From the sequence record PZ674596.1: a stretch of 64,000 nt of DNA. The stretch is one strand, 5' to 3'. The stretch comes from a phage. Below are positions 24,229 to 58,010 of this stretch, piece by piece (position 1 is the stretch's first letter; every line of letters starts with the position of its first letter). The translations under genes were made by a program, and so were the position numbers. The notes below the pieces were generated by a model. That model made no database searches and was not told where the DNA came from. It saw only the letters and a program-made list of their open reading frames with translations.

Positions 24229-24305
24229 ATCTGTCTGGTCTTGTTCTCTCAATAAATGTAAACTCACGCAATGAATAAGTGGTTACTTATCTTTGTGAGG
24301 TTTTT

Positions 24306-25409
24306 GTGTCACTCCTTTTGAATCGTGAGCATACGAACGGTCAGGTAACAAACGCATCGTATGCAAAAGTTATTGAGACGGTGCTTAAAAGCGGCGTGCA
24401 GGCTGATGATCGCACAGGCACTGGTACTTTAAGCACCTGTTACGTTCCCTCTTACTACATGCTTACTGGTGGGACTGTGCCGCTTATTTCTGGAAAGGCG
24501 GTAAATCTTAAGCCACTGCTTGTCGAACTTGAGTGGTATCTGAAAGGCACGGGCAACATCCAATTTCTCAAGGATAACGGCGTTAAGATTTGGGATGCAT
24601 GGGCCGATGAGAATGGCGATTTGGGGCCGGTTTACGGTAAGCAGTGGCGTCGATGGGAAGATACCCGCATCGTGAGCCATAGTGAATATCTGAGCAAGAT
24701 CGCTACTTTCCGTGAACGCGGGTACAAAGTCGAGGGATACCTGGGTATCAGTGAAGATCGCGTAGTGCTGTCCCGTGAAATCGATCAGCTACAGCGTATT
24801 GTCGATACACTGCGCACGAACCCTACCGATCGTCGCATCATGCTTAACGCATGGAACGTAGGCGAGCTTGAGGATATGAAACTGCCACCTTGCCACTTTG
24901 TCTTCTCTTTGTGGAGTCGTGAGCTGGATTTTGAAACCCGTTTAACGATGGCAACTGACATTGGTCTTCAACACAGTCGCCTCGGTTACGAGTCTATCTA
25001 CACCAAGATGCTATACGATCTGGAGATAGACGGCAGTGTTACTGAAGCTGAACTGGATGAACTTGGAATCCCCAAACGCATCCTCAACTCCTGCCTCGTA
25101 CAGCGTAGCGTAGACACTTTTGTTGGTATGCCATTCAATATTGCTGGCTATGGCATTCTCACTCATTTTCTCGCGAAGATTACGGGTCACATGGCCGGTG
25201 CATTTGTGCATTTTGGCTTTGACGTGCATTTGTACAACAACCACATGGAAGGTGTGTGTGAGCTAATGCAACGACAGGCTCCAGAGCATTCAGATCCGGT
25301 CGTTATATTCCCTAATGAATGGTCTGAGCTGGATGATTTCAAATGGGACGAGATTCTTATTCTTGGCTATGCCCCTCTACCGTGGATCAAGGTTCCAGTG
25401 GCGGTGTGA
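24306..25409 (+). CDS. thyA: thymidylate synthase (ThyA family, with insertions)
   Basis: ThyA motifs DRTGTGT, DRRIMLNAWNVGEL, PPCH, GMPFNIAGY; start uncertain: placed at in-frame GTG 24306 after GAGG, since table GTG 24279 lies inside an operator-like palindrome. Confidence 0.8.
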   Translation: MSLLLNREHTNGQVTNASYAKVIETVLKSGVQADDRTGTGTLSTCYVPSYYMLTGGTVPLISGKAVNLKPLLVELEWYLKGTGNIQFLKDNGVKIWDAWADENGDLGPVYGKQWRRWEDTRIVSHSEYLSKIATFRERGYKVEGYLGISEDRVVLSREIDQLQRIVDTLRTNPTDRRIMLNAWNVGELEDMKLPPCHFVFSLWSRELDFETRLTMATDIGLQHSRLGYESIYTKMLYDLEIDGSVTEAELDELGIPKRILNSCLVQRSVDTFVGMPFNIAGYGILTHFLAKITGHMAGAFVHFGFDVHLYNNHMEGVCELMQRQAPEHSDPVVIFPNEWSELDDFKWDEILILGYAPLPWIKVPVAV

Positions 25410-25410
25410 T

Positions 25411-25824
25411 ATGGCAAGAGGTATGTATGTCTTATGCGAAATTGAAGGTGTGCTGGCAAATACCAGCCATCGTAAATCTGTATCTGACTCGGATGCAGGC
25501 CAATTCATTGCCGGTGATGAACTCATTTTCCCCACCAGCCGTATGTTGCGTGGTTTTGCTCGCTCAGGGGCTGAAGTGGTGCTTATCAGTAGCCGCTCTG
25601 AAACTCTTGAAGCGCCCACTAAACGATGGCTGAAAGATTTTGGTGTTGATTACGACTGGCTTCACCTCGTACCGAATAGCACCAGTTATGAGAAGCATAT
25701 TAAGCGCACATTAGCGGAGCATAAAGGCGATCTGCTTATCGCTGCGCTGGTGCACGATCCTCGACTCCGTGCCGCTTTAGCTGACTCTCATCATAGACCG
25801 GTCATCTATGAGGTGAGCAAATGA
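25411..25824 (+). CDS. hypothetical protein
   Basis: 137 aa from ATG overlapping thyA stop; upstream part of table ORF overlaps thyA. Confidence 0.4.
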   Translation: MARGMYVLCEIEGVLANTSHRKSVSDSDAGQFIAGDELIFPTSRMLRGFARSGAEVVLISSRSETLEAPTKRWLKDFGVDYDWLHLVPNSTSYEKHIKRTLAEHKGDLLIAALVHDPRLRAALADSHHRPVIYEVSK

Positions 25825-26297
25825 AGATGATAGCTGCTGTTGGCCGTAACTATGAGATCGGCATAGCGAACGAACTGCCCTGGCGTTGTTCTACCGATCT
25901 GAAGCTATTTAAGAGACTCACCAAAAACGCCACTGTCGTTATGGGGCGTAAAACGATGGAAAGTCTCAAACGCCCTCTTCCAGAGCGTCATAACCTCGTT
26001 TTGACGCGCTCTCATGGCTTTGTACCAAATGGATTCTACCCTGCTGGTGTGGATGATGTGTTGCGATTACCAGAGCCTGTGTGGGTGATTGGCGGGGAAC
26101 AAATTTACTCGCTATTCATGCCGCATGTTGAAGAGATTTGGCTCTCCCACATCGGCGTTGATGTGCCAAACGCCGATGCATTCTTCCCGGCAAGCATGAT
26201 GCGTAATTTAGGCTTTGTGCCTGTTGAAACAGCTTATACCCAACGAGCCAGCGAGGAAGAGCCTGGCTTTTCGCAGATCGTATACAGAAGGTCGTAA
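25821..26297 (+). CDS. folA: dihydrofolate reductase
   Basis: 158 aa; DHFR-like N-terminus MIAAVGRNYEIG..LPW and VVMGRKT; adjacent to thyA as in T4 td/frd. Confidence 0.85.
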   Translation: MKMIAAVGRNYEIGIANELPWRCSTDLKLFKRLTKNATVVMGRKTMESLKRPLPERHNLVLTRSHGFVPNGFYPAGVDDVLRLPEPVWVIGGEQIYSLFMPHVEEIWLSHIGVDVPNADAFFPASMMRNLGFVPVETAYTQRASEEEPGFSQIVYRRS

Positions 26298-26941
26298 TGG
26301 ATTACCGGATTGGGATCACTGGTGCTCAGGGCAGTGGGAAAACAACCCTGGCTAAATATATCGACAAACATTACGGAATCCCTTACGTGGATGCTGGTGT
26401 CGGAAGTTTGATGAGCCGCCTCGGTGTTCGAGTAGGTGATTCTATGCCTCTATATGAGCGGCTTCAGATTCAAATGGAAATAGCAAAGCATATAGAGCTA
26501 CTTACGCGTGGTGCTGAAGGCTTTGTTATCGATCGCACACCTGCTGATGTTATGGCCTACACGTTGGATTTGGTCGGCCATACAAATGAAGATCGGTGTA
26601 TTGAGTTAGCCCTCGATATCGAAAAGTTTTGCCACAAAACTGCTATTTCAAACTTTAACGCCATTGCTGGCCTACGCCCGGGGGGCGCTCTCTCAGAGCG
26701 AGATTACTTGCGGTCACAACGAGCATCATTAGACCGTCTGTATGTCGCTCGTATTGATGCGTTGATGTGCGGGGAACTGACAAAAATTCACCTGCATCCG
26801 CAAAGGGGAGATCTGCAAACCTTCGTCGTTTCCAACCGGTATCGCACAGTTGAAGCAAGAGCCAGATCAGTGATGAGAATGCTAGATAACGCTGTAGAAA
26901 AGATAGAAAACCGGTTCTGTGGCCGAGTGACCGTTCATTAG
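26297..26941 (+). CDS. P-loop nucleoside/nucleotide kinase-like protein
   Basis: 214 aa; Walker A GITGAQGSGKTT at N-terminus. Confidence 0.5.
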   Translation: MDYRIGITGAQGSGKTTLAKYIDKHYGIPYVDAGVGSLMSRLGVRVGDSMPLYERLQIQMEIAKHIELLTRGAEGFVIDRTPADVMAYTLDLVGHTNEDRCIELALDIEKFCHKTAISNFNAIAGLRPGGALSERDYLRSQRASLDRLYVARIDALMCGELTKIHLHPQRGDLQTFVVSNRYRTVEARARSVMRMLDNAVEKIENRFCGRVTVH

Positions 26942-27002
26942 AAATTGTTCGCCTCTTCGACATTGCGACAATAAAACTCTCAAAATGGGTTAAGGATAAA
27001 AA

Positions 27003-27422
27003 ATGTTTAGTGAAATGTTGCTTGAAGATGAACTGGATCGGAAAACAACAGAGGCTTTGATTCGTGTAGCGGACGAACATTCCCGGTCGCTTATGAGCGA
27101 TCGAGAGGCTCGTCTGGCTATTCGTGCCATATTCGAAACTGCGCAGGGGCTTGTTGGCGCACAAGTAGGTGAAGCCATTAACATCGCCATGTCTCAGTTC
27201 AGTGAAGACAGTAAAAAGCCTCTGTTTCCTATGCATTTGATGCTGGCTGGTGGCACGGTGCTTTATATCTCTGTTTGTCTGGATAGCAACCAAATCAATA
27301 TTCTCAACACTGCGTCAGGTAAGTGGAAAGATCCGATTGTCTGTGAAACCAGTGAAGAAACTTTGAAAAAAGCGGCTCAATTTGTACGTAGCGCACTACT
27401 TAAGGGCGCTAAGAAGTTGTAA
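27003..27422 (+). CDS. hypothetical protein
   Basis: 139 aa; no recognised motif. Confidence 0.45.
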   Translation: MFSEMLLEDELDRKTTEALIRVADEHSRSLMSDREARLAIRAIFETAQGLVGAQVGEAINIAMSQFSEDSKKPLFPMHLMLAGGTVLYISVCLDSNQINILNTASGKWKDPIVCETSEETLKKAAQFVRSALLKGAKKL

Positions 27423-27431
27423 GGAGTAGTA

Positions 27432-28226
27432 ATGGGACAACCGGTAGACATAACAGGTAAACGTTTTGGAAAGTTGGTTGCACTTAAATATTCCGGTATT
27501 TCAAACAAACAAGGGCGACTTTGGGATTGCATCTGCGATTGCGGCAACACCTGCCTGGTTAGTTACGGGAAGCTAAATCACGGGGCGACAATATCGTGTG
27601 GCTGTGTCTACAACGCACATCGCCGTAGCGTAAAGCCTCATGGTATGAGTAAAACGCCAATTTATCGTATATGGCTGGGTATGCGGGAACGATGTGAAAA
27701 ACCAACCCATCACGCCTATAAGTGGTATGGCGGCCGAGGTATCAAAGTCTGCGAGCGGTGGCAAATATTTGAAAATTTTTATGCTGACATGGGAGAGCGA
27801 CCAGAGGGGATGTCTCTTGATCGCAAAGATGTGAATGGTGACTACGAACCTGAAAATTGCAGATGGGCGACTTTTGAAGAACAGGCCAATAACACGCGTT
27901 CAAACTTAATTTTGGAGCATAAGGGGGAAAAGCTGACTCTCTCACAATGGGCTAAAAGAGCCGGGATTCAGACATCAACTCTTCACTATCGAATCAAGAA
28001 AGGGTGGCCATTAGATCGCGCGCTTAACGCCAGCGTCGACACGTATGCCAACCGAGATAGTAAGCGTCTGATCGAGTGTCGCGGCAGAACTCAGCGAATT
28101 ACCGAATGGGCTAGAGAGGTTGGCTTGACTGCGACCATTATCTCGCAGCGAATTTTGAGGGGGTGGGATGTTGAAGCTGCCATCTTCACACCGTCCAAAC
28201 GACCAGTAAAAGGAGATAAAAAGTGA
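27432..28226 (+). CDS. HNH endonuclease (homing-endonuclease-like)
   Basis: 264 aa; Cys cluster CDCGNTC..SCGC and HNH-like core DRKDVNGDYEPENCRWATFEEQANN. Confidence 0.6.
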   Translation: MGQPVDITGKRFGKLVALKYSGISNKQGRLWDCICDCGNTCLVSYGKLNHGATISCGCVYNAHRRSVKPHGMSKTPIYRIWLGMRERCEKPTHHAYKWYGGRGIKVCERWQIFENFYADMGERPEGMSLDRKDVNGDYEPENCRWATFEEQANNTRSNLILEHKGEKLTLSQWAKRAGIQTSTLHYRIKKGWPLDRALNASVDTYANRDSKRLIECRGRTQRITEWAREVGLTATIISQRILRGWDVEAAIFTPSKRPVKGDKK

Positions 28227-28771
28227 TTGCTACAGGGGTGGACATCGAATCAACAGGTCTTGATTTCCTCTCAGGCCATAAAATCATTGAAATCGCAATG
28301 GTGAAGTACGAAATTGAGACACAGACAATGGTTGATAGTTTTGTAATGCGGTTCAACCCGCGTCGCAGTATCGATCCGAAAGCGCAAGCGGTACACGGCA
28401 TCAGTCTTGAAGATTTAGCCGCCGAGCCGTTACTAGCCGATCACGCTTCATCTGTCGCTTCGTATCTCTCTTCTTCCGATATTTGGATAGCCCACAACGG
28501 CGAAGCGTTCGATATTCCGTTTATTAGGCATGAGCTGAAAAGTTACGGTTTTTCGCTTCCAGACATCCCATTGATTGACACTCTATTTTCCCTGTGGGCC
28601 ACAGAAGACGGTAAACGTCCCCGCCTTGAAGAGTTGGCCTTCTCTCTTGGCTTTATATACGATCATGCCAAAGCACATAGTGCCTTATATGACACAAACT
28701 TAATGATGCAATGCTTCTTTAAGGCACGTAATAAGTACGGATTTTTTAAATTACCCTCTGAAATTGTGTAA
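28223..28771 (+). CDS. DnaQ-like 3'-5' exonuclease (DEDDh)
   Basis: Exo motifs GVDIESTGLD, HNGEAFDIPF, H-x4-D (AHSALYD); GTG start after AAAGGAG. Confidence 0.8.
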   Translation: MIATGVDIESTGLDFLSGHKIIEIAMVKYEIETQTMVDSFVMRFNPRRSIDPKAQAVHGISLEDLAAEPLLADHASSVASYLSSSDIWIAHNGEAFDIPFIRHELKSYGFSLPDIPLIDTLFSLWATEDGKRPRLEELAFSLGFIYDHAKAHSALYDTNLMMQCFFKARNKYGFFKLPSEIV

Positions 28772-28775
28772 AACA

Positions 28776-28814
28776 AAAGCCTACTTTAAAAAGTTTAAAG
28801 TAGGCTTTCTTTTA
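28776..28814 (+). terminator. Rho-independent terminator
   Basis: 15-bp stem AAAGCCTACTTTAAA / TTTAAAGTAGGCTTT followed by T-rich run. Confidence 0.7.
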
Positions 28815-28929
28815 AAGAACAGTCGCCTTTCAATCATTTCCTGCCTGTATTTAATACTTTTCCGCCTGATAGGTTTAGTCAAAATGCAGCCATCGAAACG
28901 CAAATGTAACCAAACAGAAGGAGACTTAC

Positions 28930-29739
28930 ATGAGTTCGGTTGAAAATGTAATGACAAATGATGATCTGGACGAGCTGACAGCCATGTTGCAATCACTTGA
29001 TGAACCAGTAAAAAAAGCTGCACAGGTTGAAAATACTGATGATATTGACGATCTGCTGCTCGGCCTAGATGCTGGCGTAGCCATGAGTTCTGATGATGTT
29101 GCCGAAGAACTGTTCAATGAAGAAAAAGCAGGTGATTTCAGCTCTGCTTTAAATGAGTTGGAGTTAGCGCATGAGCCTATAAACATAATTAACGCTGAAA
29201 GTGTTGAAGCTGCCGAAAACGAGCCAGAACAATTGGGATTTATTGAGGTTGAAGAGTGTGTTGAGGTTAATGATGAATTAAAAGTTCAACAGTCAAATGA
29301 TAGCAATACAAATAAAAAAGCTCGTACTGCAAGAGGTCCTCGTTTTACTTTAAGTGATAAAGATGATTCGTTTTTCAATAAAGCGGGCTTAGAAAAAGAT
29401 ATTTTCTTAGACGCTTACGATAACGCGCCTGTCAAAGCAAAGGATAAGATATTAAACCTTCTTAATTGGTTTAGCGGAGGTCCAGATATTAGTGTTTACA
29501 CGGTAATTTCCATGAGACACCTTCTCACAGAAAAGAAGGCTACAAGTAATAGTATTAAGATTGCTTTAATGAGCAATCCAGAAAAACCGTATCCGCTTAA
29601 TACTGCGTCAACTCAGGCTGGGCAAATGATGGCTGTATTTCCAGCGACAGGAATTGCCGTTAGAGACGGTGGAAATCTAACATTGAACGAAGAATCACCG
29701 ATCGTTAAGAAGTTTGTCGCGGAGTACACTATTGGATGA
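28930..29739 (+). CDS. acidic hypothetical protein (candidate DNA mimic)
   Basis: 269 aa; N-terminal ~120 aa very rich in D/E; RBS AAGGAG. Confidence 0.5.
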   Translation: MSSVENVMTNDDLDELTAMLQSLDEPVKKAAQVENTDDIDDLLLGLDAGVAMSSDDVAEELFNEEKAGDFSSALNELELAHEPINIINAESVEAAENEPEQLGFIEVEECVEVNDELKVQQSNDSNTNKKARTARGPRFTLSDKDDSFFNKAGLEKDIFLDAYDNAPVKAKDKILNLLNWFSGGPDISVYTVISMRHLLTEKKATSNSIKIALMSNPEKPYPLNTASTQAGQMMAVFPATGIAVRDGGNLTLNEESPIVKKFVAEYTIG

Positions 29740-30595: not shown

Positions 30596-30701
30596 AGCTT
30601 TGTATCAGAGACTCCAGACCTGAACATCACTACAGAATCCACTAGAACCCCTTCCCAGACGCTTTAAAATCGATTTTATGAACCACTTTAAGGAAACCAA
30701 C

Positions 30702-30932
30702 ATGTCATACCCGACTAATGTCGTTGCGCTCGTAGAGAGCGATTTTCTGGCCCAGGCTCGTGAAATGATGAAAGATCGTGAGCAGGCTTTCAACTTGTAC
30801 GAATGGGCAATTAAGTGCTTGCATCTTGGCGAGCATCGCGAACTTGTTGAACAGCTTTTAGGTGAGTTGATCAATGAGGTGTTTGCCTTGAATGTTCAAC
30901 TACATGGTAGAGAAAATAATCAATCACAATGA
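30702..30932 (+). CDS. hypothetical protein
   Basis: 76 aa from ATG after AAGGAAACC; table ORF starts 24 nt earlier. Confidence 0.4.
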   Translation: MSYPTNVVALVESDFLAQAREMMKDREQAFNLYEWAIKCLHLGEHRELVEQLLGELINEVFALNVQLHGRENNQSQ

Positions 30933-31514
30933 TAGATAAGTACAAACTATTCATAAAGTGAATTGTAAGTGCTAAGATCTGATAGTTTCCAGTCGTAGAC
31001 TGGAGACTCGACCTGATGGGTGGGGGTAAGCGTCACTGGCGTCAGGTTTAAAAAAGCTCACTACCAGCGTAGAACTGGTGCCGTTTAGGTGTCGGGGAAG
31101 GGGGAACCAAAGTGAGCAGAGACAAGGGTCACTTTATGATTGTCGAGTCTGGGGTGTTTCGAGAGGTTGAATCCAGTACTCCCCTTCATAAAGTGTGGGA
31201 AGATCTCGGTTCTGGGGTGCTGTCATCCATAACTTCCCAAGTCTAAGCTGGCAGTAGACTTAGACCATAACTTTTCAGGTTATGAAACGACCAGGTTGGT
31301 GAGAGATTTTTATACTCACCTCCCTGGGAGAGTATTACCTGAAAAGACAACCTCTCACTTCGTTCGAGGTGAACTTCACTCACTTCGTTCGTTCAGTTCA
31401 GGTTTATAAAAACCTGTTCTGGGAAGTAATTTGTTTATTTTAATAATTATTAACACGCACGCGTGTGCGCACGCGCGAGGAAAAATCGGCGCGGCGCTTG
31501 ATTCAGGAGTTTAT

Positions 31515-32105
31515 ATGACGACGAAGACACCAGCCCGATCGCAAGCAAAAACTCGCAAAAAAGCCAAAAACAAAAATTCCCCCCGCACCAATCCCACAAC
31601 GCCTGTCGTAGAGTTCAATCCCCAGCTTAAAACCGTGAAAATCTTTAGTGATGGCTCTTGCCTTAAAAATCCGGGTGGCCCGGGCGGTTACGGTATCGTT
31701 CTCCAGTATCGTGGTGAGGAACGCGAGTTCTCAGATGGTTTTCATAGCACCACCAATAACCGCATGGAGATGATGGGGGCACTTATCGGGCTGGAGCGTT
31801 TGAAATATCCATGCAACGTTATTTTGCACTCTGATAGCCAGTATCTGAAAAACGGCATGACACAGTGGATGAAATGGTGGAAACGCAATGGATGGATGAC
31901 TTCTGACAAAAAACCGGTAAAGAATGTTGATCTGTGGAAGCGTCTGGATGAGGCCGCAAGTCGACATAATGTTCGCTGGAAGTGGGTTAAAGGTCACGCC
32001 GGGCATCGTGAAAATGAAATATGTGATCGACTCGCGAAGATCGCAGCTTTTTCAGCAGCAGATATGCCTCACAAGAAAGATATTGGTTTTGTTTATAATA
32101 AATAG
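31515..32105 (+). CDS. rnhA: ribonuclease HI with basic N-terminal extension
   Basis: Near-complete match to RNase HI core ([35 protein letters not shown]); start at ATG 31515 after CAGGAG. Confidence 0.85.
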
Positions 32106-47340: not shown

Positions 47341-48075
47341 ATGAAAAAGTTGAAAAGTTTAGAAATCCCTGGGACTGGTTATAAATTCTTTATGGACAAC
47401 GCGGAGTGTGCGCCTAACGCGTTGGAAAAAATACAAAGTCTTATCAACAGCCTTACTGAAGAAGCGAAAGAACTGAAGAGCGAGGCGACAAAGGACAATA
47501 CAGCTAAAATCCAATGCTTAAATCTCGTTTCTTATTGTTTATATCAAGTGTCCAAAACACTGATTAAAGGCAATATCTATTACGACGATGAAGACACCTC
47601 GACACCTGAAGAAAAAGATAGCGATGAAGAACTCTATGAAGATATCTCTACCAGTGCGGGTCACGCTGCCTTCGATGCTATGGGTGAATCGTCAGGCATC
47701 AGATCGTTTGTTGAACAGAACAATTCGACAATAATGATTGAGTACTGTGAACAAACAAGCTCCAAGGCCATACATGTTCTTCACGATGTTGCTGCAGGGG
47801 TTCGCTGTGAGGCTGAAGCGGTCAGAAAAGATGTATTTGGTGCAGACAGTAATACCGTGAAAGCGTTCATCAACAGTGCTCTGCTAAATTCTTACTCAAA
47901 CCTTATCGTCAATGCGGCACTATGCGCAAATTCAGGTGAAGAACACATTGTCATAACTGAAACCAAACATGAGCATCAACAGTCACCAACCATAGAAGAG
48001 GTAACTGCATTGGCTATCAAACAGGCGAGTGAAATTAGTGATGAAATTCTCTCTCTGCTAAACAAAACTATGTAA
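47341..48075 (+). CDS. hypothetical protein
   Basis: 244 aa; acidic central region. Confidence 0.5.
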   Translation: MKKLKSLEIPGTGYKFFMDNAECAPNALEKIQSLINSLTEEAKELKSEATKDNTAKIQCLNLVSYCLYQVSKTLIKGNIYYDDEDTSTPEEKDSDEELYEDISTSAGHAAFDAMGESSGIRSFVEQNNSTIMIEYCEQTSSKAIHVLHDVAAGVRCEAEAVRKDVFGADSNTVKAFINSALLNSYSNLIVNAALCANSGEEHIVITETKHEHQQSPTIEEVTALAIKQASEISDEILSLLNKTM

Positions 48076-48189
48076 AACATTGATAATGGCGGTCAAAATT
48101 TGATTCTTTTCTATAAGAATCCGTTGATCGCCACTACTCCCCTTCCATACCTGCAATCATACCCTTAAATATCAATAGGTTATGGTTGT

Positions 48190-48935
48190 TTATACAAATA
48201 AGAAAACAACTAAATAACAGATCAACGAAACGTCAACGCTTTCACCCGATTTGGTCTAAAAAATTGACGTTTTCACACATCACTTCTTATACCCGTAACT
48301 CTACGCAGCAGACAGCGCCACAGCGTCCAATTTTCACCACAGACGACCCAACACACTACCAACAAAAACACACGCTCAAAATCGCTCCCGTTGCGTTACA
48401 CAACCATATAAACAACTTATTTTCAGGCATAACAAAACAACTAAATAACACACATGCCATTCCCAAAAACAACCAACCTCTTTATGGCAGGCTACCGAAA
48501 AGACCCACCTCTTCTCCCCAGGCTACCGGACAACCAACCTAACTTTCACAGGCAATCCGAAAACATTCATACGCGCGATACCCACGACACGCCATTCCCC
48601 AAACAGCGAAGAAACACCAGAATCACTGAAACCCCAACGAAGCCTGTAACCGCAAGGATTCTCTCAATCCCAAAAGACACGAAACAGAACAATCACGGGA
48701 AACGCCATTACCCAATACACGAATAACTACAAAAGCCTTTCACACACTCCAGACAAACAACTCAAACACAATAACGAAAGGAATCGCCCACCTGCCATTA
48801 CTCCATACACGGAGAAGAACAATCACCAAAACGACGAGAACACCCCATAGAAGAACCACCGCAAAACGAACGAAACCACATACACCGACAGAGAAAACAG
48901 CACACCCAATTCACCAACAGAAATAGTCGCCGTAT
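48190..48935 (+). repeat. G-depleted A/C-rich low-complexity tract with dispersed direct repeats
   Basis: ~750 bp with almost no G on plus strand; 17-mer AAAACAACTAAATAACA twice (near 48199 and 48434); GCCATT(C/A)C(C/T)C-type repeats near 48456, 48591, 48704, 48794. Confidence 0.7.
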
Positions 48936-49127
48936 AGAACATTCTGGAAGGAGTGAGCATTAACGCCTATAGAGAGGTTGAGACAGATAAAACACAACAT
49001 GTATAGCGAAGAAGCCAGGTATGTATAAGTGGGGAGGGAAGGAGGGGTGTCGCCTCCTTTTTCGTATTTATTCAACTCCTGATTTTATCCCCCGTAACAC
49101 CCCTACGGTCAGCCTTCGGTCCATACA

Positions 49128-52875: not shown

Positions 52876-53106
52876 TTATTTGTGTAAACTGATTTTAAAT
52901 CCCATTTCTACGAACGCTTTTAACATTAAAAATATATCAGCGTCGTTCACGTCTGCTTTTTTTCGCTCCTGGTCGCTCAATAAGTCAATTTTGCGCGTCG
53001 TTTCATCTATAAGCTCGACTGCGCGCCCAGCGTAACCAGCGATCCCAGCGATGCGATTAACATAATATTCATTATGGACGTTAACGCCAGCGATAAGAAC
53101 AAACAT
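52876..53106 (-). CDS. small hypothetical protein
   Basis: 76 aa; RBS AAGGAG 6 nt upstream of ATG. Confidence 0.45.
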   Translation of the reverse strand: MFVLIAGVNVHNEYYVNRIAGIAGYAGRAVELIDETTRKIDLLSDQERKKADVNDADIFLMLKAFVEMGFKISLHK

Positions 53107-53126
53107 GATTAAGCTCCTTAAAAAAA

Positions 53127-53330
53127 TTAAATAGAATTTTGAAGTTTTCCGATTAATGCGCTTAAACGTAAGTATTCACGTTTGCGCTTGCAATCTCGCT
53201 TGCTGTTAAGCAAATCAGAAAACGTAAAATTTAATTGGTCGCGTTGCGCGATCAAATCATCGATTAATTCCAGTTTATAAGCGCGATACTTTGCGCGATA
53301 TTCTGCGCGGATCTTGTCATAGCTGACCAT
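53127..53330 (-). CDS. small basic hypothetical protein
   Basis: 67 aa from ATG 53330 with RBS AAAGGAG; table N-terminal extension covers a hairpin. Confidence 0.4.
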   Translation of the reverse strand: MVSYDKIRAEYRAKYRAYKLELIDDLIAQRDQLNFTFSDLLNSKRDCKRKREYLRLSALIGKLQNSI

Positions 53331-53378
53331 TTTTAAAGCTCCTTTAAAGCGCCCATAGTGGGCGCTTGATTCCATTAA

Positions 53379-54029
53379 TTACGCTTTGAAAGCATCAGCT
53401 AAATAATTGTAGAAATCATTTTTAATGAAGCGATATTGCTGAGTACCAGCTTTTGCGCTCCCAGCTCCTTTGACTTTCTCAACAAGTCCGAGACGTTCGC
53501 AAAGATTGATCAACTGGTTGGCTTGAGTATAGCCAGCGTCCAATTTAATTTCGCACGCTTTTTTAGCTTCATTCATTAAATCGAAAACAGCGCCATTAGT
53601 GAACGTGTCGATCTCGTCGTTAATCATATCGATTAAAGCGAATACACGAGATCCTGACATATCAGCGACGGAATAAACGCATTTACCAGCTTTAATGGAT
53701 TTAACCAGATAAACCAGTTTTTCCAGTGAATAACTATTAGTCATTGCATCACGGAAAAATACTTCTGGCGCTTGTTTGCTTGCTTTAATCGCATAGTAGA
53801 AAACAGAGCATAATTTTTCGTCTTCAACAGCGTTTACAACGTTGTTGATGAAGTAAGCAAGTTTAGTGGTAGCAGCTTGCATATTTGCTTTATCTGCTTT
53901 GGTGTGCGTACCATTTTTATAATGTTCGTTATATGTTTGAGTTGCCAGATCTGCTTTTTCTTTTAATTCATTTGTTACAACACGCGCAGCTTCAACGATG
54001 GATTTTTTAGATAAGATAATATTGGTCAT
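53379..54029 (-). CDS. hypothetical protein
   Basis: 216 aa from ATG 54029 with RBS AGGAA; low-GC coding region. Confidence 0.5.
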   Translation of the reverse strand: MTNIILSKKSIVEAARVVTNELKEKADLATQTYNEHYKNGTHTKADKANMQAATTKLAYFINNVVNAVEDEKLCSVFYYAIKASKQAPEVFFRDAMTNSYSLEKLVYLVKSIKAGKCVYSVADMSGSRVFALIDMINDEIDTFTNGAVFDLMNEAKKACEIKLDAGYTQANQLINLCERLGLVEKVKGAGSAKAGTQQYRFIKNDFYNYLADAFKA

Positions 54030-54322
54030 GGTTTTATTCCTTACAAAAATTAAAATGAATTTATTTTTTACTGTCGTTAGCCAGTTCGCTTTCGACGAGT
54101 TCAATTATCGATACGCAAAAAAAGATTGCAAGTGTTTTTTTTAGTTTTTTGCAGGGACGAAAGTCCTAGAAATAAAAGCGAGATCGTCGAAGGTGTTCCC
54201 TAAATAAATAATTAATTCCGGCTTATAACCTTATATGTTTATACGGAGTAGAATTGGAGGTGTATTTAATAAATGGCATTTAAAAAAATAACCGGACTTA
54301 GCCGGTTATTACCCTTATACAT

Positions 54323-54619
54323 TTATCGGACTGATTCTACAGCCTTACGATTGGTGTCAAATAACGCATCAACGAACTGCACAGAAGAGTTGTTCGATTC
54401 ACATGGTTCATAATTTTCCACTTGTTCACATAGTTGAGCGGTCTTACCAATGTTTATCCCTAATTTTACAGCTGCTGAAAGTTTAAACATGCAAACTGGT
54501 ACATTCTGAGACGTTGAGCATACGTCATTCATCAGCGACTGAATAATTGCGATATCATCCTTTGCATTGGCCGAAATTGAGTAAACTAAAAATAAAGATG
54601 TCAATAGTATCGATTTCAT
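54323..54619 (-). CDS. small secreted Cys-rich protein
   Basis: 98 aa; signal peptide MKSILLTSLFLVYSISANA; six Cys in mature part. Confidence 0.5.
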   Translation of the reverse strand: MKSILLTSLFLVYSISANAKDDIAIIQSLMNDVCSTSQNVPVCMFKLSAAVKLGINIGKTAQLCEQVENYEPCESNNSSVQFVDALFDTNRKAVESVR

Positions 54620-54622
54620 AAC

Positions 54623-55144
54623 TCAAAACGGTAAAATTCGTTCAACCCAATCGAAGAATACAAGTGTTTTTCTGCCGTCTTCTAACTTAAGAGTGACCTG
54701 GCAAGCATCAACGCCTCTTGATATCCCTTCTATTTCACGACCGTCTGCCATGTAGACCCTTATAGATTTGCCGTTTTGGTAAGCCTGACGACATATCTTA
54801 AAAAAGTCACGACGTGATGGCTGATTGTCAACATAGTCTGGATGTATTGTTAGCCTACCTTTGAACTCGCGAGCAATGCCATCGATTACACCTGATTCAA
54901 TTGTGCTAATGCGCTCAAGTGGGAGTCTTATACGATTTTCTTTATCATATGGAAGCGGGCATAAATCTAGCTTATTGCGGGAAGGCATTGTCCCCTGAAC
55001 GTACATGCAAAACACCTGACCGTCTTCAAGCGTGACTCTTACAGGAATGTTGTTTTTCCGCCAGAACATAAGTATGTTTTCAGCATGTTCGTAGTCTCGT
55101 GGCCAGACTTCTGCTGGAATGCCGTAGGTGATGTCTTTAACCAT
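54623..55144 (-). CDS. hypothetical protein with internal tandem repeat of ~80-aa domain (weak Sm/Hfq-like signature)
   Basis: 173 aa; halves share R..N.IPVRVTLEDGQV / GKSIRVYMADGREIEG pattern; ends 3 nt before the secreted-protein gene. Confidence 0.45.
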   Translation of the reverse strand: MVKDITYGIPAEVWPRDYEHAENILMFWRKNNIPVRVTLEDGQVFCMYVQGTMPSRNKLDLCPLPYDKENRIRLPLERISTIESGVIDGIAREFKGRLTIHPDYVDNQPSRRDFFKICRQAYQNGKSIRVYMADGREIEGISRGVDACQVTLKLEDGRKTLVFFDWVERILPF

Positions 55145-55246
55145 AGTCTACCTTTTTAAGTCTTTTTTGGTCATTATATACATCTCTATGATGCGTAGAC
55201 AGACTAACCGTACATTCCAACAAAAATTGATTATGGAACAAGTTTC

Positions 55247-56047
55247 ATGAAGAATGGGGTGAATAAAAAATACTCATTAGCATTGTTAATAGCGGCTTTA
55301 CTATTAACAGGTTGTGATTCTGATGAAGAGCGAGCCATAAATCTGGTCGAGAAGGATATTCGCTCTACACTGCTAGATCCTGATGCTGGTCGGTTCACGA
55401 ATATGCGAGCTATTCAGTTAGGTGAAAATAGCTATTCATATATGGTATGTGGAGAGGTGAATGGCAAAAACGTCTTGAACGCCTATACAGGTGCGACCGC
55501 ATTCAATGCACACATCTTTGATGTTCGTGAACGTAACCCGATTGTATTCGTTGCAATGGATAAAAATACCAACTCGGCAAGAGAACGATTACGTTTTGAA
55601 CGCCAAAATCTAGCATGTAAAGAAAATGGTGTGAAACTTTATCTGGAAAACGAATCTAATATCAGGAAGGAAAAAGAGAAAATAGATGATTTAAAAAAAA
55701 CTCCATTAGGTCAGGCTGTGTTTGATGCTGCAAGTGATTCGACATATGTGAGTAGAGAGTTGGGCGAATCGAGAGGTGTTAGTGAAGTGTATGCAAGAGA
55801 AAATGATAAATATGCTCTTGTTAGCGTCACCAATTATGACACTCCTGACTTTTACAAATTTAGGAAAAAAGATAACGGTGAACTAGAACCTGTTAGAGGA
55901 CTGTCTTACACCGGCTATCCATTCGCGGTTACACTGTGCCATTCTGAACAAACAGATTATGACAAATGCATAACAGAAGAAGAAATCAAGTTGCTTCGAG
56001 ACGAAAAGAATAAGCTGGATGATTTTGTCGTGCCACCAGAAGAATAA
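55247..56047 (+). CDS. lipoprotein of unknown function
   Basis: 266 aa; signal peptide with lipobox LLTGC; only plus-strand gene in the low-GC island. Confidence 0.55.
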   Translation: MKNGVNKKYSLALLIAALLLTGCDSDEERAINLVEKDIRSTLLDPDAGRFTNMRAIQLGENSYSYMVCGEVNGKNVLNAYTGATAFNAHIFDVRERNPIVFVAMDKNTNSARERLRFERQNLACKENGVKLYLENESNIRKEKEKIDDLKKTPLGQAVFDAASDSTYVSRELGESRGVSEVYARENDKYALVSVTNYDTPDFYKFRKKDNGELEPVRGLSYTGYPFAVTLCHSEQTDYDKCITEEEIKLLRDEKNKLDDFVVPPEE

Positions 56048-56106
56048 CATATACAAAATATTTAATTGCTGTTAACATTTAATCGTTCAGACATAGGGAA
56101 AGTCCT

Positions 56107-56144
56107 ATGCCCTCGACAAATCTTTCTGGTATTGTCGAGGGCAT
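56107..56144. terminator. bidirectional hairpin between convergent genes
   Basis: ATGCCCTCGACAA...TTGTCGAGGGCAT inverted repeat. Confidence 0.6.
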
Positions 56145-56169
56145 GTTTCACATTTATAGGTAGATAGCG

Positions 56170-57303
56170 TTAATTGGCGTTTTCGTTCTTCTCTTTTTTG
56201 CTAATTTCATCACATGCAAGGTTCATTATGTCTATGTTTTCTTGTTTTTGAAGGTTGCCGACAATTTTTTGGCGCAATTCATAAAATCGCTCGCGTGGTA
56301 TAGCTTCCTTGTTGCCGCTGATGTGAAGTATTGCGTGACAGCTAGGGCAGACGGCAATCAGATCTGTTTTTGGGTTCACGCTTCGTGCACCTTCGCCTTG
56401 TGAAAGTGGGATGATGTGGTGAGCGTGTAGCAGCGTTTTCGTTTCTTTACCGTCAATTTCCTTGCCGTATATTTCCGACATCGTTCTGCAACATAGTTGA
56501 CACCTGTAGTCTGCGTTTGCCAGAACGTCATTCCTTAACCCGGATACGCGGCTACGATGTTGCGACTGGATTAATCTTGTTTCGCCCTCTATATATTCCT
56601 CAACTTCTTCTTTCTGGAGGTCGTAGCTGATTTCTTCTTGAGTTACGTTGTCTTCTGCTTTGGCTGAGACTGCATGAATCTCTTTCTTATTCAACGAGAA
56701 AGGTGATTTGAGAGCATCAGCACTGTTTTGCCCTCTTGAATGTTGTGATTTTAGAGCAAGATTGTAAATCTCTTTTAATTTGACATTTTTTTTGTTTGTT
56801 CTAAAGAACTTTCTGCTCTCTACTTGTGAGATAATCCCTGATTCTATATATTGAATTAACACACGAAGAAAATGTTCTATAGATTTTTTACTTTTGAATG
56901 AAAAGGAATAGCCGACTTTCTTTCTCAACTCGTTTTCGCTAAAGAACTCTTTCAGATTTTCGTCGTCAGTCAGGTTAATGGTTGCACCTGCCCAGGTTGA
57001 AGCTTCTACAATTTCAGGAATAACCTCTTGGTCGCCAAGCTGATTGTTTATTTCATCCAGCATTTTAAAGACTGTCAATATTGGATACGGATTCGTCACC
57101 AGACCGTTAGAGGATTTCGTTCTAGGCCCATTCTTTTTTATAATGATGGGGTGCTGTTGAGAAGTTTTCTTTAATTGTAAATAATAAAGGTTTATATTAT
57201 TATTCGTTGATATACCTGCCGGTTTTATCAAGGATAATTTTTCATCACATGCAATATCATCTATTATATTTCTTAGGTCACACGTTTTTATAAATTGACG
57301 CAT
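56170..57303 (-). CDS. HNH-nuclease-domain protein with unknown N-terminal domain
   Basis: 377 aa; C-terminal CQLCC...HAHHIIPLS...CPSCH HNH signature; low GC; RBS GGAGGA lies in a CCTCCGAA/TTCGGAGG hairpin. Confidence 0.6.
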   Translation of the reverse strand: MRQFIKTCDLRNIIDDIACDEKLSLIKPAGISTNNNINLYYLQLKKTSQQHPIIIKKNGPRTKSSNGLVTNPYPILTVFKMLDEINNQLGDQEVIPEIVEASTWAGATINLTDDENLKEFFSENELRKKVGYSFSFKSKKSIEHFLRVLIQYIESGIISQVESRKFFRTNKKNVKLKEIYNLALKSQHSRGQNSADALKSPFSLNKKEIHAVSAKAEDNVTQEEISYDLQKEEVEEYIEGETRLIQSQHRSRVSGLRNDVLANADYRCQLCCRTMSEIYGKEIDGKETKTLLHAHHIIPLSQGEGARSVNPKTDLIAVCPSCHAILHISGNKEAIPRERFYELRQKIVGNLQKQENIDIMNLACDEISKKEKNENAN

Positions 57304-57443
57304 ATATCCTCCGAATTTCTTCGGAGGCGGAGCCTACAAATATCGTTCAGCCAATCAAGAAATTTTTTCAGCCGGAGGTGTACATTTCAAAAAATGTGAC
57401 GAATGTCACATGCAGGTGCTCTCATACACCTGCATGTAGACTA

Positions 57444-58010
57444 TTAATCATTCAATAATCTATATTTTCTTTTGATTAAATCTTCACCTTTTTTGGTGAA
57501 CACAAAACCAAATTGCGATTTTTTGTTTAGACGAAGGACTCTGTTATCCAACGCATCGGTTGATGGAATCAATGTTTGATCATCTATCCAATTAAGTAGC
57601 GTAAGAAAGTTCAGCAGCCTCAACGTTGTTGTGCGAAGCTCTTTCGATATATTTTCAATGCTGGCAATTCGTCTTTCTTTTTTCTCAGGTGGTACAGATA
57701 ATTGTTCTTGAGGTTTCGTGGATAGATAATCAATTTCGTTTGCTGCATCGAATGATATGTGTGGCGTAATTTTGCTAAAAAAGCCTTTCGCTGACTCACT
57801 TGATAATAAACCAGACCTATTCATATCGTTTGTTATTCTGTACAGGAGTGGACTGTGTTTCATTTCAGGATAACGTTGATAAAAGTTAAGCAATTCAAAA
57901 GCAGCATTAGCGCCAACAAGAAAATCAGAAGGATCGCTGACTTTCCAGAAAGAATGATTTTTCTTAGCGCCAGTGGTGTCAACAAATGATAATTCTTTTA
58001 ACCAACTCAT
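57444..58010 (-). CDS. hypothetical protein
   Basis: 188 aa from ATG 58010 with RBS AAGGAG; inverted repeat GATGTGCTC-N13-GAGCACATC overlaps the RBS. Confidence 0.45.
   Translation of the reverse strand: MSWLKELSFVDTTGAKKNHSFWKVSDPSDFLVGANAAFELLNFYQRYPEMKHSPLLYRITNDMNRSGLLSSESAKGFFSKITPHISFDAANEIDYLSTKPQEQLSVPPEKKERRIASIENISKELRTTTLRLLNFLTLLNWIDDQTLIPSTDALDNRVLRLNKKSQFGFVFTKKGEDLIKRKYRLLND

Follow-up and report, generated by a model that had tools for sequence, protein, structure and literature searches.

A putative free-standing homing gene beside the DnaQ-like exonuclease gene of an SSU5-like phage-plasmid

Phages are known to carry free-standing homing genes whose cleavage site lies some way from the place of insertion (PMC2790892, PMC2988022, PMC12724721). 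The locus described here lies in a 64,000-nucleotide stretch of phage DNA (PZ674596.1; the window) and resembles the T4-type SegF, SegG and MobE ('intronless homing') in that an intergenic free-standing ORF sits beside a conserved DNA-metabolism gene (PMC2790892, PMC2988022). As with the T4-type genes, the ORF is variably present among close relatives, the inferred cleavage site falls in the neighbouring gene hundreds of bp from the insertion, and one-sided co-conversion of the flank is found together with recombinants that lack the gene; co-conversion by SegG is cited in PMC12724721. In contrast to the present case, the T4-type enzymes are GIY-YIG or canonical HNH proteins of lytic phages, and both cleavage and marker exclusion were shown experimentally. 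The present ORF belongs to a temperate phage-plasmid, and its product has a non-canonical motif and a putative activity.

The nicking enzymes of the I-HmuI/HNH_3 type (PF13392) share with the encoded 264-aa protein the module order of an N-terminal beta module, a beta-beta-alpha motif and a C-terminal helix-turn-helix (HTH). An hhalign comparison placed SLDR..NCRWAT..EQxNN on VVDH..NLRWVT..INVEN of I-HmuI, with 39% of the 33 aligned columns identical and with Asp74 and the structural Asn87 among the matched positions; this likeness is statistically marginal (E 0.002-0.007, probability 5-14%). Unlike in I-HmuI, His75 is replaced by an invariant Arg and Asn96 by Gln, the gene is not intron-encoded, and the N-terminal module is Cys-rich rather than NUMOD4.

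Comparable genomic signatures were already described for other phage groups (PMC10448857, PMC3706429). IPA-HNH of ICP1-like phages (Barth et al. 2023, PMC10448857) is likewise a putative homing gene with an HNH-like domain too divergent for Pfam HNH_3, and was recognised from its variable presence, its essential or replication-gene neighbours and the boundaries of exchanged DNA. IPA-HNH combines an N-terminal HNH-like domain with a C-terminal AP2 domain, whereas in the protein studied here a central core follows a Cys-rich module and precedes two HTH repeats. Free-standing HNH genes in Cluster J mycobacteriophages (PMC3706429) are also precise intergenic insertions in near-identical genomes with the 5' end of the adjacent gene replaced, but in other hosts and contexts (the lysis cassette). 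A structural neighbour of our core domain is encoded by phage Courthouse and may or may not belong to the phamilies of PMC3706429.

The inserted gene and its operon

Megablast identified the window as an E. coli SSU5-like phage-plasmid; the flanks of the locus were 98-99.5% identical to Escherichia phages CMS-2020a, Cyrano and PhiR41_1, and Salmonella phage SSU5 was more distant. A preliminary description of the window had reported an ORF inserted within a replication and nucleotide operon, and both the coordinates (27432-28226) and the placement in such an operon proved correct; the ORF lies on the + strand, starts with ATG and encodes 264 aa. The co-directional genes encode a MazG-like pyrophosphohydrolase, ThyA, a PNK-phosphatase-like protein, DHFR, an AAA_28/kinase-like protein and a hypothetical protein, followed by the 264-aa ORF, a DnaQ/RNase_T-type 3'-5' exonuclease, a hypothetical protein, Dam and RNase H. 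The claimed overlap with the start of the DnaQ-like exonuclease gene was also found, as a GTGA at 28223-28226 in which the TGA of the ORF (28224-28226) overlaps the GTG start codon of the exonuclease (28223-28225). The proposed position between a kinase-like gene and the exonuclease gene held on the exonuclease side only. On the upstream side, the adjoining gene and left flank of the insertion encodes a 139-aa hypothetical protein (phrog_5373; 27003-27422, + strand), which was 99-100% identical to that of empty-site E. coli phage-plasmids and ~68% identical to that of the Klebsiella-type element, and the AAA_28 kinase-like gene (26297-26941) lies one gene further upstream.

Matches of the 264-aa protein to phrog_374 (E 2.1e-79, aa 1-256) and phrog_3377 (E 1.4e-70) excluded a chance ORF; the name 'HNH endonuclease' of these two PHROGs is a database annotation with a putative functional basis. 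Homologs were found in at least 7,782 clusters. The E. coli and Klebsiella copies differed by 19 synonymous and 9 nonsynonymous changes, which gave a pN/pS of 0.13, and the ORF is under purifying selection. The exonuclease gene (28223-28771, + strand; Pfam RNase_T, 1.3e-22) begins with its GTG codon and is three codons shorter than the versions in empty alleles. An AAGGAG ribosome-binding site in the left junction belongs to the exonuclease gene in empty alleles and to the 264-aa ORF in the occupied allele, where a new AAGGAG for the exonuclease is found within the 3' end of the ORF (28210-28215, + strand), 7 nt before the GTG. A scan of 26200-29200 revealed no internal promoter-like or terminator-like site, the ORF included, and the 64-kb window contained no paralog of the ORF. 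The expression logic of the operon is preserved despite the insertion.

Some features of the neighbouring genes were recorded separately. The DHFR gene (25821-26297), ~1.1 kb upstream of the insertion, is of a type that RefSeq calls dfrA51 (trimethoprim resistance) in close relatives, and dfrA51 has been described from SSU5-like phage-plasmids (PMC12217456). The thymidylate synthase ORF (24279-25409) encodes 376 aa and was matched by the 266-position Pfam model in two stretches, which suggests an insertion of ~100 aa relative to a typical ThyA. In relatives, genes near the locus were disrupted by ISEc52 in the hypothetical gene that follows the exonuclease gene, by IS1203 truncating thyA and by a frameshift in Dam (loci L005, 4740-5909; L006, 1-648; L007, 5921-6427).

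The preliminary description had also suggested a comparison with relatives free of the insertion. In SSU5, Cyrano, CMS-2020a and PhiR41_1, the upstream stop codon was followed by 9 bp and then by the ATG of the exonuclease gene. Among 5,426 complete E. coli genomes screened, 204 carried the element and eight of these carried the ORF, and a search with the Klebsiella flanks matched 278 Klebsiella plasmids, about 105 of them occupied. The empty site is the majority state, and the gene is not present in all relatives. In PLSDB, the ORF was found in 112 plasmids, 105 from Klebsiella (96.5% identity) and seven from E. coli (99.5-99.9%); every one of the 112 copies adjoined a 3'-5' exonuclease gene, and the annotation was invariably 'hypothetical protein'. 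A tblastn search of PLSDB returned no copies with 60-95% protein identity and no donor lineage for the cassette. One copy at 86% identity, in K. variicola p_AC125, was dropped as it came from an error-rich assembly with fragmented genes. The empty architecture and a 185-aa exonuclease N-terminus are shared by three lineages that are ~68-77% diverged, namely SSU5, naive E. coli and naive Klebsiella elements. The insertion in SSU5-like elements is precise, intergenic and operon-preserving. The SSU5 and phage-plasmid papers that were searchable did not mention the gene, HNH or homing.

Cassette boundaries and alleles without the gene

Sliding identity combined with the typing of informative sites delimited a foreign cassette, X, at 27428-28592 (+ strand). 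Its 1,165 bp comprise the 795-bp ORF and ~370 bp from the 5' end of the exonuclease gene. The cassette was 94-98% identical to Klebsiella phage-plasmids and 65-79% identical to, or absent from, naive E. coli alleles; the sequence on either side was 99-100% CMS-2020a-like and only 65-78% Klebsiella-like. At the left junction, GTAAGGAGT (27419-27427, + strand), which is common to all alleles and includes the upstream stop codon and the AAGGAG, the crossover was confined to this 9-bp block at the edge of the insertion. The right crossover fell within 28593-28611 (+ strand), TGTGGGCCACAGAAGACGG, a block conserved in all alleles, and it did so in each of the two lineages, E. coli and Klebsiella. 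The exonuclease gene is a mosaic, X-type over 28223-28592 and of the E. coli backbone type from 28612 onward, and the X-type tract at 28223-28592 always travels with the gene.

The Klebsiella backbone, too, carries the cassette (the ORF and nt 1 to ~385 of the exonuclease gene) as foreign sequence. In a comparison of occupied with naive Klebsiella alleles, identity was 99.8% on the upstream side and 100% on the downstream side and fell to 50-76% over the 5' part of the exonuclease gene. When the 64-kb window was compared to a whole Klebsiella phage-plasmid, the mean identity was 77% over 64% aligned sequence, and the cassette, at 94.5-97.5%, was the longest and most identical island. The gene itself was ~96.5% identical across backbones of ~68-77% identity. 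The cassette has crossed between Klebsiella-type and E. coli-type lineages, and it is very probably a site-specific insertion that moves laterally together with a conversion tract linked to it.

Three other regions of the window were also distinctive. An intergenic stretch at 31100-31400, between the ORF at 30678-30932 and the RNase H gene at 31431-32105, was 95.5-97% identical to the Klebsiella phage-plasmid compared to the 77% mean. Folded as RNA it had a minimum free energy of -107 kcal/mol (z -3.9; 0 of 100 shuffles as good) and matched no Rfam family, and it is a candidate structured RNA, or else a candidate conserved element that acts in regulation or as an origin. The region 48001-49000 showed a strong anomaly in strand composition (GC skew -0.35, AT skew +0.35), held only short ORFs and no tandem repeats, and aligned poorly to the Klebsiella element. 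The region 53000-58000 had a GC content of 36-40% compared to ~46% elsewhere, aligned only patchily to the Klebsiella phage-plasmid and may be accessory or acquired.

Three independently derived alleles lacked the ORF and yet kept part of the cassette. The E. coli 'type A' allele (e.g. AR_0104 unitig_6) was X-type from nt ~105 of the exonuclease gene, and Klebsiella pRHBSTW-00843_3 was X-type from nt ~140. In E. coli pYLMB53a (MB53), the gene was SSU5-like to nt ~355 and then carried only a short X-type patch. The single segment common to all five X-bearing allele types (two with the gene and three mosaics without it) was 28577-28592 (+ strand), a minimal X-type stretch of ~16 bp that reads ACTCTATTTTCC(-3 bp)CTG and carries a 3-bp deletion. 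At the same position, all three naive allele types had a ACTATGTTATCGGGATTG-like sequence. The X-type site was present in 36 E. coli genomes, of which eight had the ORF, about 27 were type A (as counted with an exonuclease-only query) and one was MB53, and another 156 E. coli genomes matched only from 28593 onward, i.e. in the naive form. We infer that the X-type variant of 28577-28592 is a cleavage-resistant form of the target and marks a candidate cleavage site, which would place the break in naive alleles at around nt 360-390 of the exonuclease gene. A second candidate target at nt 82-103, which is conserved in naive alleles and has 10 mismatches to X, was down-weighted because the naive sequence is retained at those positions in all mosaics without the gene.

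The 5' ~355 bp of the exonuclease gene in MB53 (L015, 1159-1713, equivalent to 28223-28771 of the window) were 90-97% SSU5-like within an E. coli-type backbone. Thus, the 5' segment of the exonuclease gene has at least four allelic types that have been swapped between lineages.

The 264-aa protein

The protein, labelled 'hypothetical' in RefSeq, matched no HNH-type family of Pfam or NCBIfam even at E<=10, while I-HmuI and T4 MobE, used as positive controls, did match HNH models. It had no sequence relatives in the PDB, where phmmer and a profile hmmsearch gave noise only (gamma-crystallin, mS23). In an AlphaFold2 model with a mean pLDDT of 92.3, a Cys-rich beta module at the N-terminus was followed by a helical core that closes with a beta-beta-alpha motif and then by two repeats of a beta-hairpin plus HTH. 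The Cys-rich module (aa 9-58; 27456-27605, + strand) has the pattern GxRFGxL...WxCxCxCG...SCGC, is duplicated in some homologs and is likely to be a Zn-binding module that contacts DNA. The beta-beta-alpha motif SLDRKDVNGDYEPENCRWATFEEQANN (aa 128-154; 27813-27893, + strand) aligned to the active site of I-HmuI and was modelled as beta 128-131, beta 143-146 and alpha 148-153 with pLDDT >95. The C-terminal repeats (aa 160-199 and 213-252; 27909-28187, + strand) gave a weak match to PVL_ORF50 and were placed by hhalign on the C-terminal HTH of I-HmuI; they probably act as sequence-recognition modules.

A Foldseek search of the PDB with the full-length model gave no match. With the core domain alone, the two best matches were the HNH nucleases 4h9d and 3ldy, at a non-significant level (E 1.2-2.3, TM 0.3-0.4). 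An hhalign comparison of the family profile with I-HmuI, with the comparator sequence verified as that of PDB 1U3E, placed SLDRKDVNGDYE-PENCRWATFEEQANN on VVDHKDGNKDNNLSTNLRWVTQKINVEN (E 0.007), and a comparison with a 40-sequence HNH_3 profile gave a marginal match (E 0.002, probability 14%) that extended into the C-terminal HTH. T4 MobE was rejected as the HNH comparator; it belongs to PF01844 rather than HNH_3 and had no similarity to the family, and I-HmuI was therefore used instead. In the resulting register, D130 corresponds to the metal ligand Asp74, R131 (codon at 27822-27824) to the general base His75, N142 to the structural Asn87 and Q151 to the metal ligand Asn96, with the roles of the I-HmuI catalytic residues as stated in PMC12724721. 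Arg131 was invariant in family alignments of 50 and 61 sequences. In the set of I-HmuI homologs it was the His that was invariant, and the His/Asn pair was kept in 88 of 89. The residue equivalent to Asn96 was Gln in 124 of 144 family motifs, as in Q151 here. Across the family, the D130 position was D or E, N142 was invariant, and an invariant Asn154 followed three residues after Gln151.

In canonical HNH enzymes, replacing the catalytic His and Asn with Arg and Gln would abolish catalysis. A Gln that serves as a metal ligand is known from R.KpnI, and to our knowledge there is no precedent for an Arg that replaces the general base. By its sequence the protein is at best a remote, His-less relative of HNH_3, and we did not file it as a member. 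The label 'HNH' given to it in the preliminary description was retained only in part: the relation to I-HmuI/HNH_3 is remote, no HNH model of Pfam or NCBIfam matched, and the His is changed to an invariant Arg and the metal-ligand Asn to Gln.

BFVD matches placed the family in phages of many hosts, sometimes with several copies per genome, under the names HNH endonuclease, HTH homing endonuclease, AP2 domain protein, PVL ORF-50-like and uncharacterized. The genomic contexts of two distant homologs were phage-like and uninformative. The literature searched contained no biochemical data on the protein or the family. It is possible that the family derives from an I-HmuI-type beta-beta-alpha-metal nuclease and is an active homing nuclease or nickase with non-canonical catalysis, for example with the near-invariant His70 as the base, and we lean slightly against this possibility.

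Explanations for the spread of the cassette

Break-induced homing by the 264-aa protein, encoded by a free-standing homing-type selfish gene, is in our view the probable explanation of the locus. Gene conversion set off by a break would have copied the gene into the 9 bp that separate the hypothetical gene from the exonuclease gene of an SSU5-like phage-plasmid. With its Cys-rich module and both HTH repeats, the protein would bind exonuclease alleles of the naive type, most likely around nt 360-390 of the exonuclease gene, about 350-370 bp downstream of its own gene, and would nick or cut the naive allele at the bound site. Repair of the break from a co-resident or co-infecting element that carries the gene would convert the site to the resistant form with the 3-bp deletion, and a long enough tract would also copy the gene. 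The conversion tracts would run leftward from the break for varied lengths, and the shorter ones would yield mosaics without the gene. The catalytic centre would descend remotely from the beta-beta-alpha-metal motif of I-HmuI/HNH_3 and depart from its canonical form, with Arg in place of His and Gln in place of Asn.

The alleles compared here displayed a presence/absence polymorphism at a fixed site, a co-conversion tract and an identity above that of the backbone, as would be expected from the hallmarks of homing genes. The homing reading is supported because the insertion is precise, the tract is one-sided, the identity across lineages is high and the recombinants without the gene share a minimal core. 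The role of the protein as the maker of the break is less secure because its active site is non-canonical, and whether and how it cleaves is the weakest step of the model. The homing-endonuclease insertion proposed in the preliminary description was thus supported as a genomic signature, with cleavage putative and with an HNH identity of the protein that is remote and His-less. A counterpoint is that the 5' region of the exonuclease gene also swaps an SSU5-like segment in MB53, so part of the mosaicism could be ordinary recombination.

In a second explanation, the protein is a non-catalytic, HNH-derived protein that binds specific DNA sequences, such as a regulator or accessory factor of the replication operon. 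Phage-plasmids that share a cell would exchange the cassette by ordinary recombination, homologous or homeologous, and the cassette may hitch-hike with an exonuclease allele under diversifying selection. The family-wide replacement of the catalytic His and Asn by Arg and Gln, the lack of an HNH model match, and the two HTH repeats and Cys-rich module typical of DNA binders would all fit such a protein; purifying selection suits any functional protein, and the exonuclease 5' segment, with at least four allelic types, recombines without the gene too, as in MB53. However, the cassette is the single strongest island of cross-lineage identity in 64 kb, its left crossover is restricted to a 9-bp block at the edge of the insertion, and three independent mosaics without the gene converge on one ~16-bp core. 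The sporadic, multi-copy distribution of the family in phages is typical of homing genes, and about 96% of E. coli elements lack the gene despite 99-100% identity elsewhere, which would be unexpected for a regulator. We therefore regard this second explanation as unlikely, while giving it more weight than the remaining two.

A third explanation, which we consider improbable, draws on the same molecular evidence as homing and treats the gene mainly as a weapon of competition. Its product would cut the exonuclease gene in incompatible SSU5-like phage-plasmids that compete with the carrier, or in superinfecting relatives, to the benefit of the carrier and with homing as a by-product. Interference competition was shown experimentally for a homing endonuclease of phage PhiPA3 (PMC11620839) and marker exclusion for expressed HNH enzymes of Skunavirus (PMC12724721), and the target here is a gene of the replication operon. 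In contrast, the gene was kept in only eight of the 36 E. coli elements with an X-type site, which gives no sign of strong positive selection for its retention. Finally, the gene could be ancestral to SSU5-like elements and repeatedly deleted, with the empty sites as deletions and the mosaics with a partial X tract as deletion or replacement derivatives, but this is very improbable given that SSU5, naive E. coli and naive Klebsiella elements share the empty architecture and the 185-aa exonuclease N-terminus, that the gene is ~96.5% identical across ~68-77% backbones, that occupied and naive Klebsiella alleles are 99.8-100% identical on both sides of the cassette, and that PLSDB is without copies at 60-95% identity.

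Under the preferred homing reading, the locus provides an unusually clean natural example of intronless homing outside the lytic model phages, with occupied, naive and three partly converted alleles at one site, and the allele series alone confines the probable target to a stretch of about 20 bp in the exonuclease gene. The locus also records recent flow of DNA between Klebsiella-type and E. coli-type SSU5-like phage-plasmids, which are clinically widespread, and if homing tracts reach ~1.1 kb upstream, neighbouring alleles such as dfrA51 could move. Modular site-specific nickases or nucleases with readable DNA-binding repeats would be of practical interest. The protein family is huge, inconsistently named, missing from Pfam and NCBIfam, and without the canonical catalytic His. 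If its members are active, they would represent a new catalytic variant of the His-Me finger nucleases, and if they are inactive, many phage 'HNH endonuclease' annotations would be wrong.
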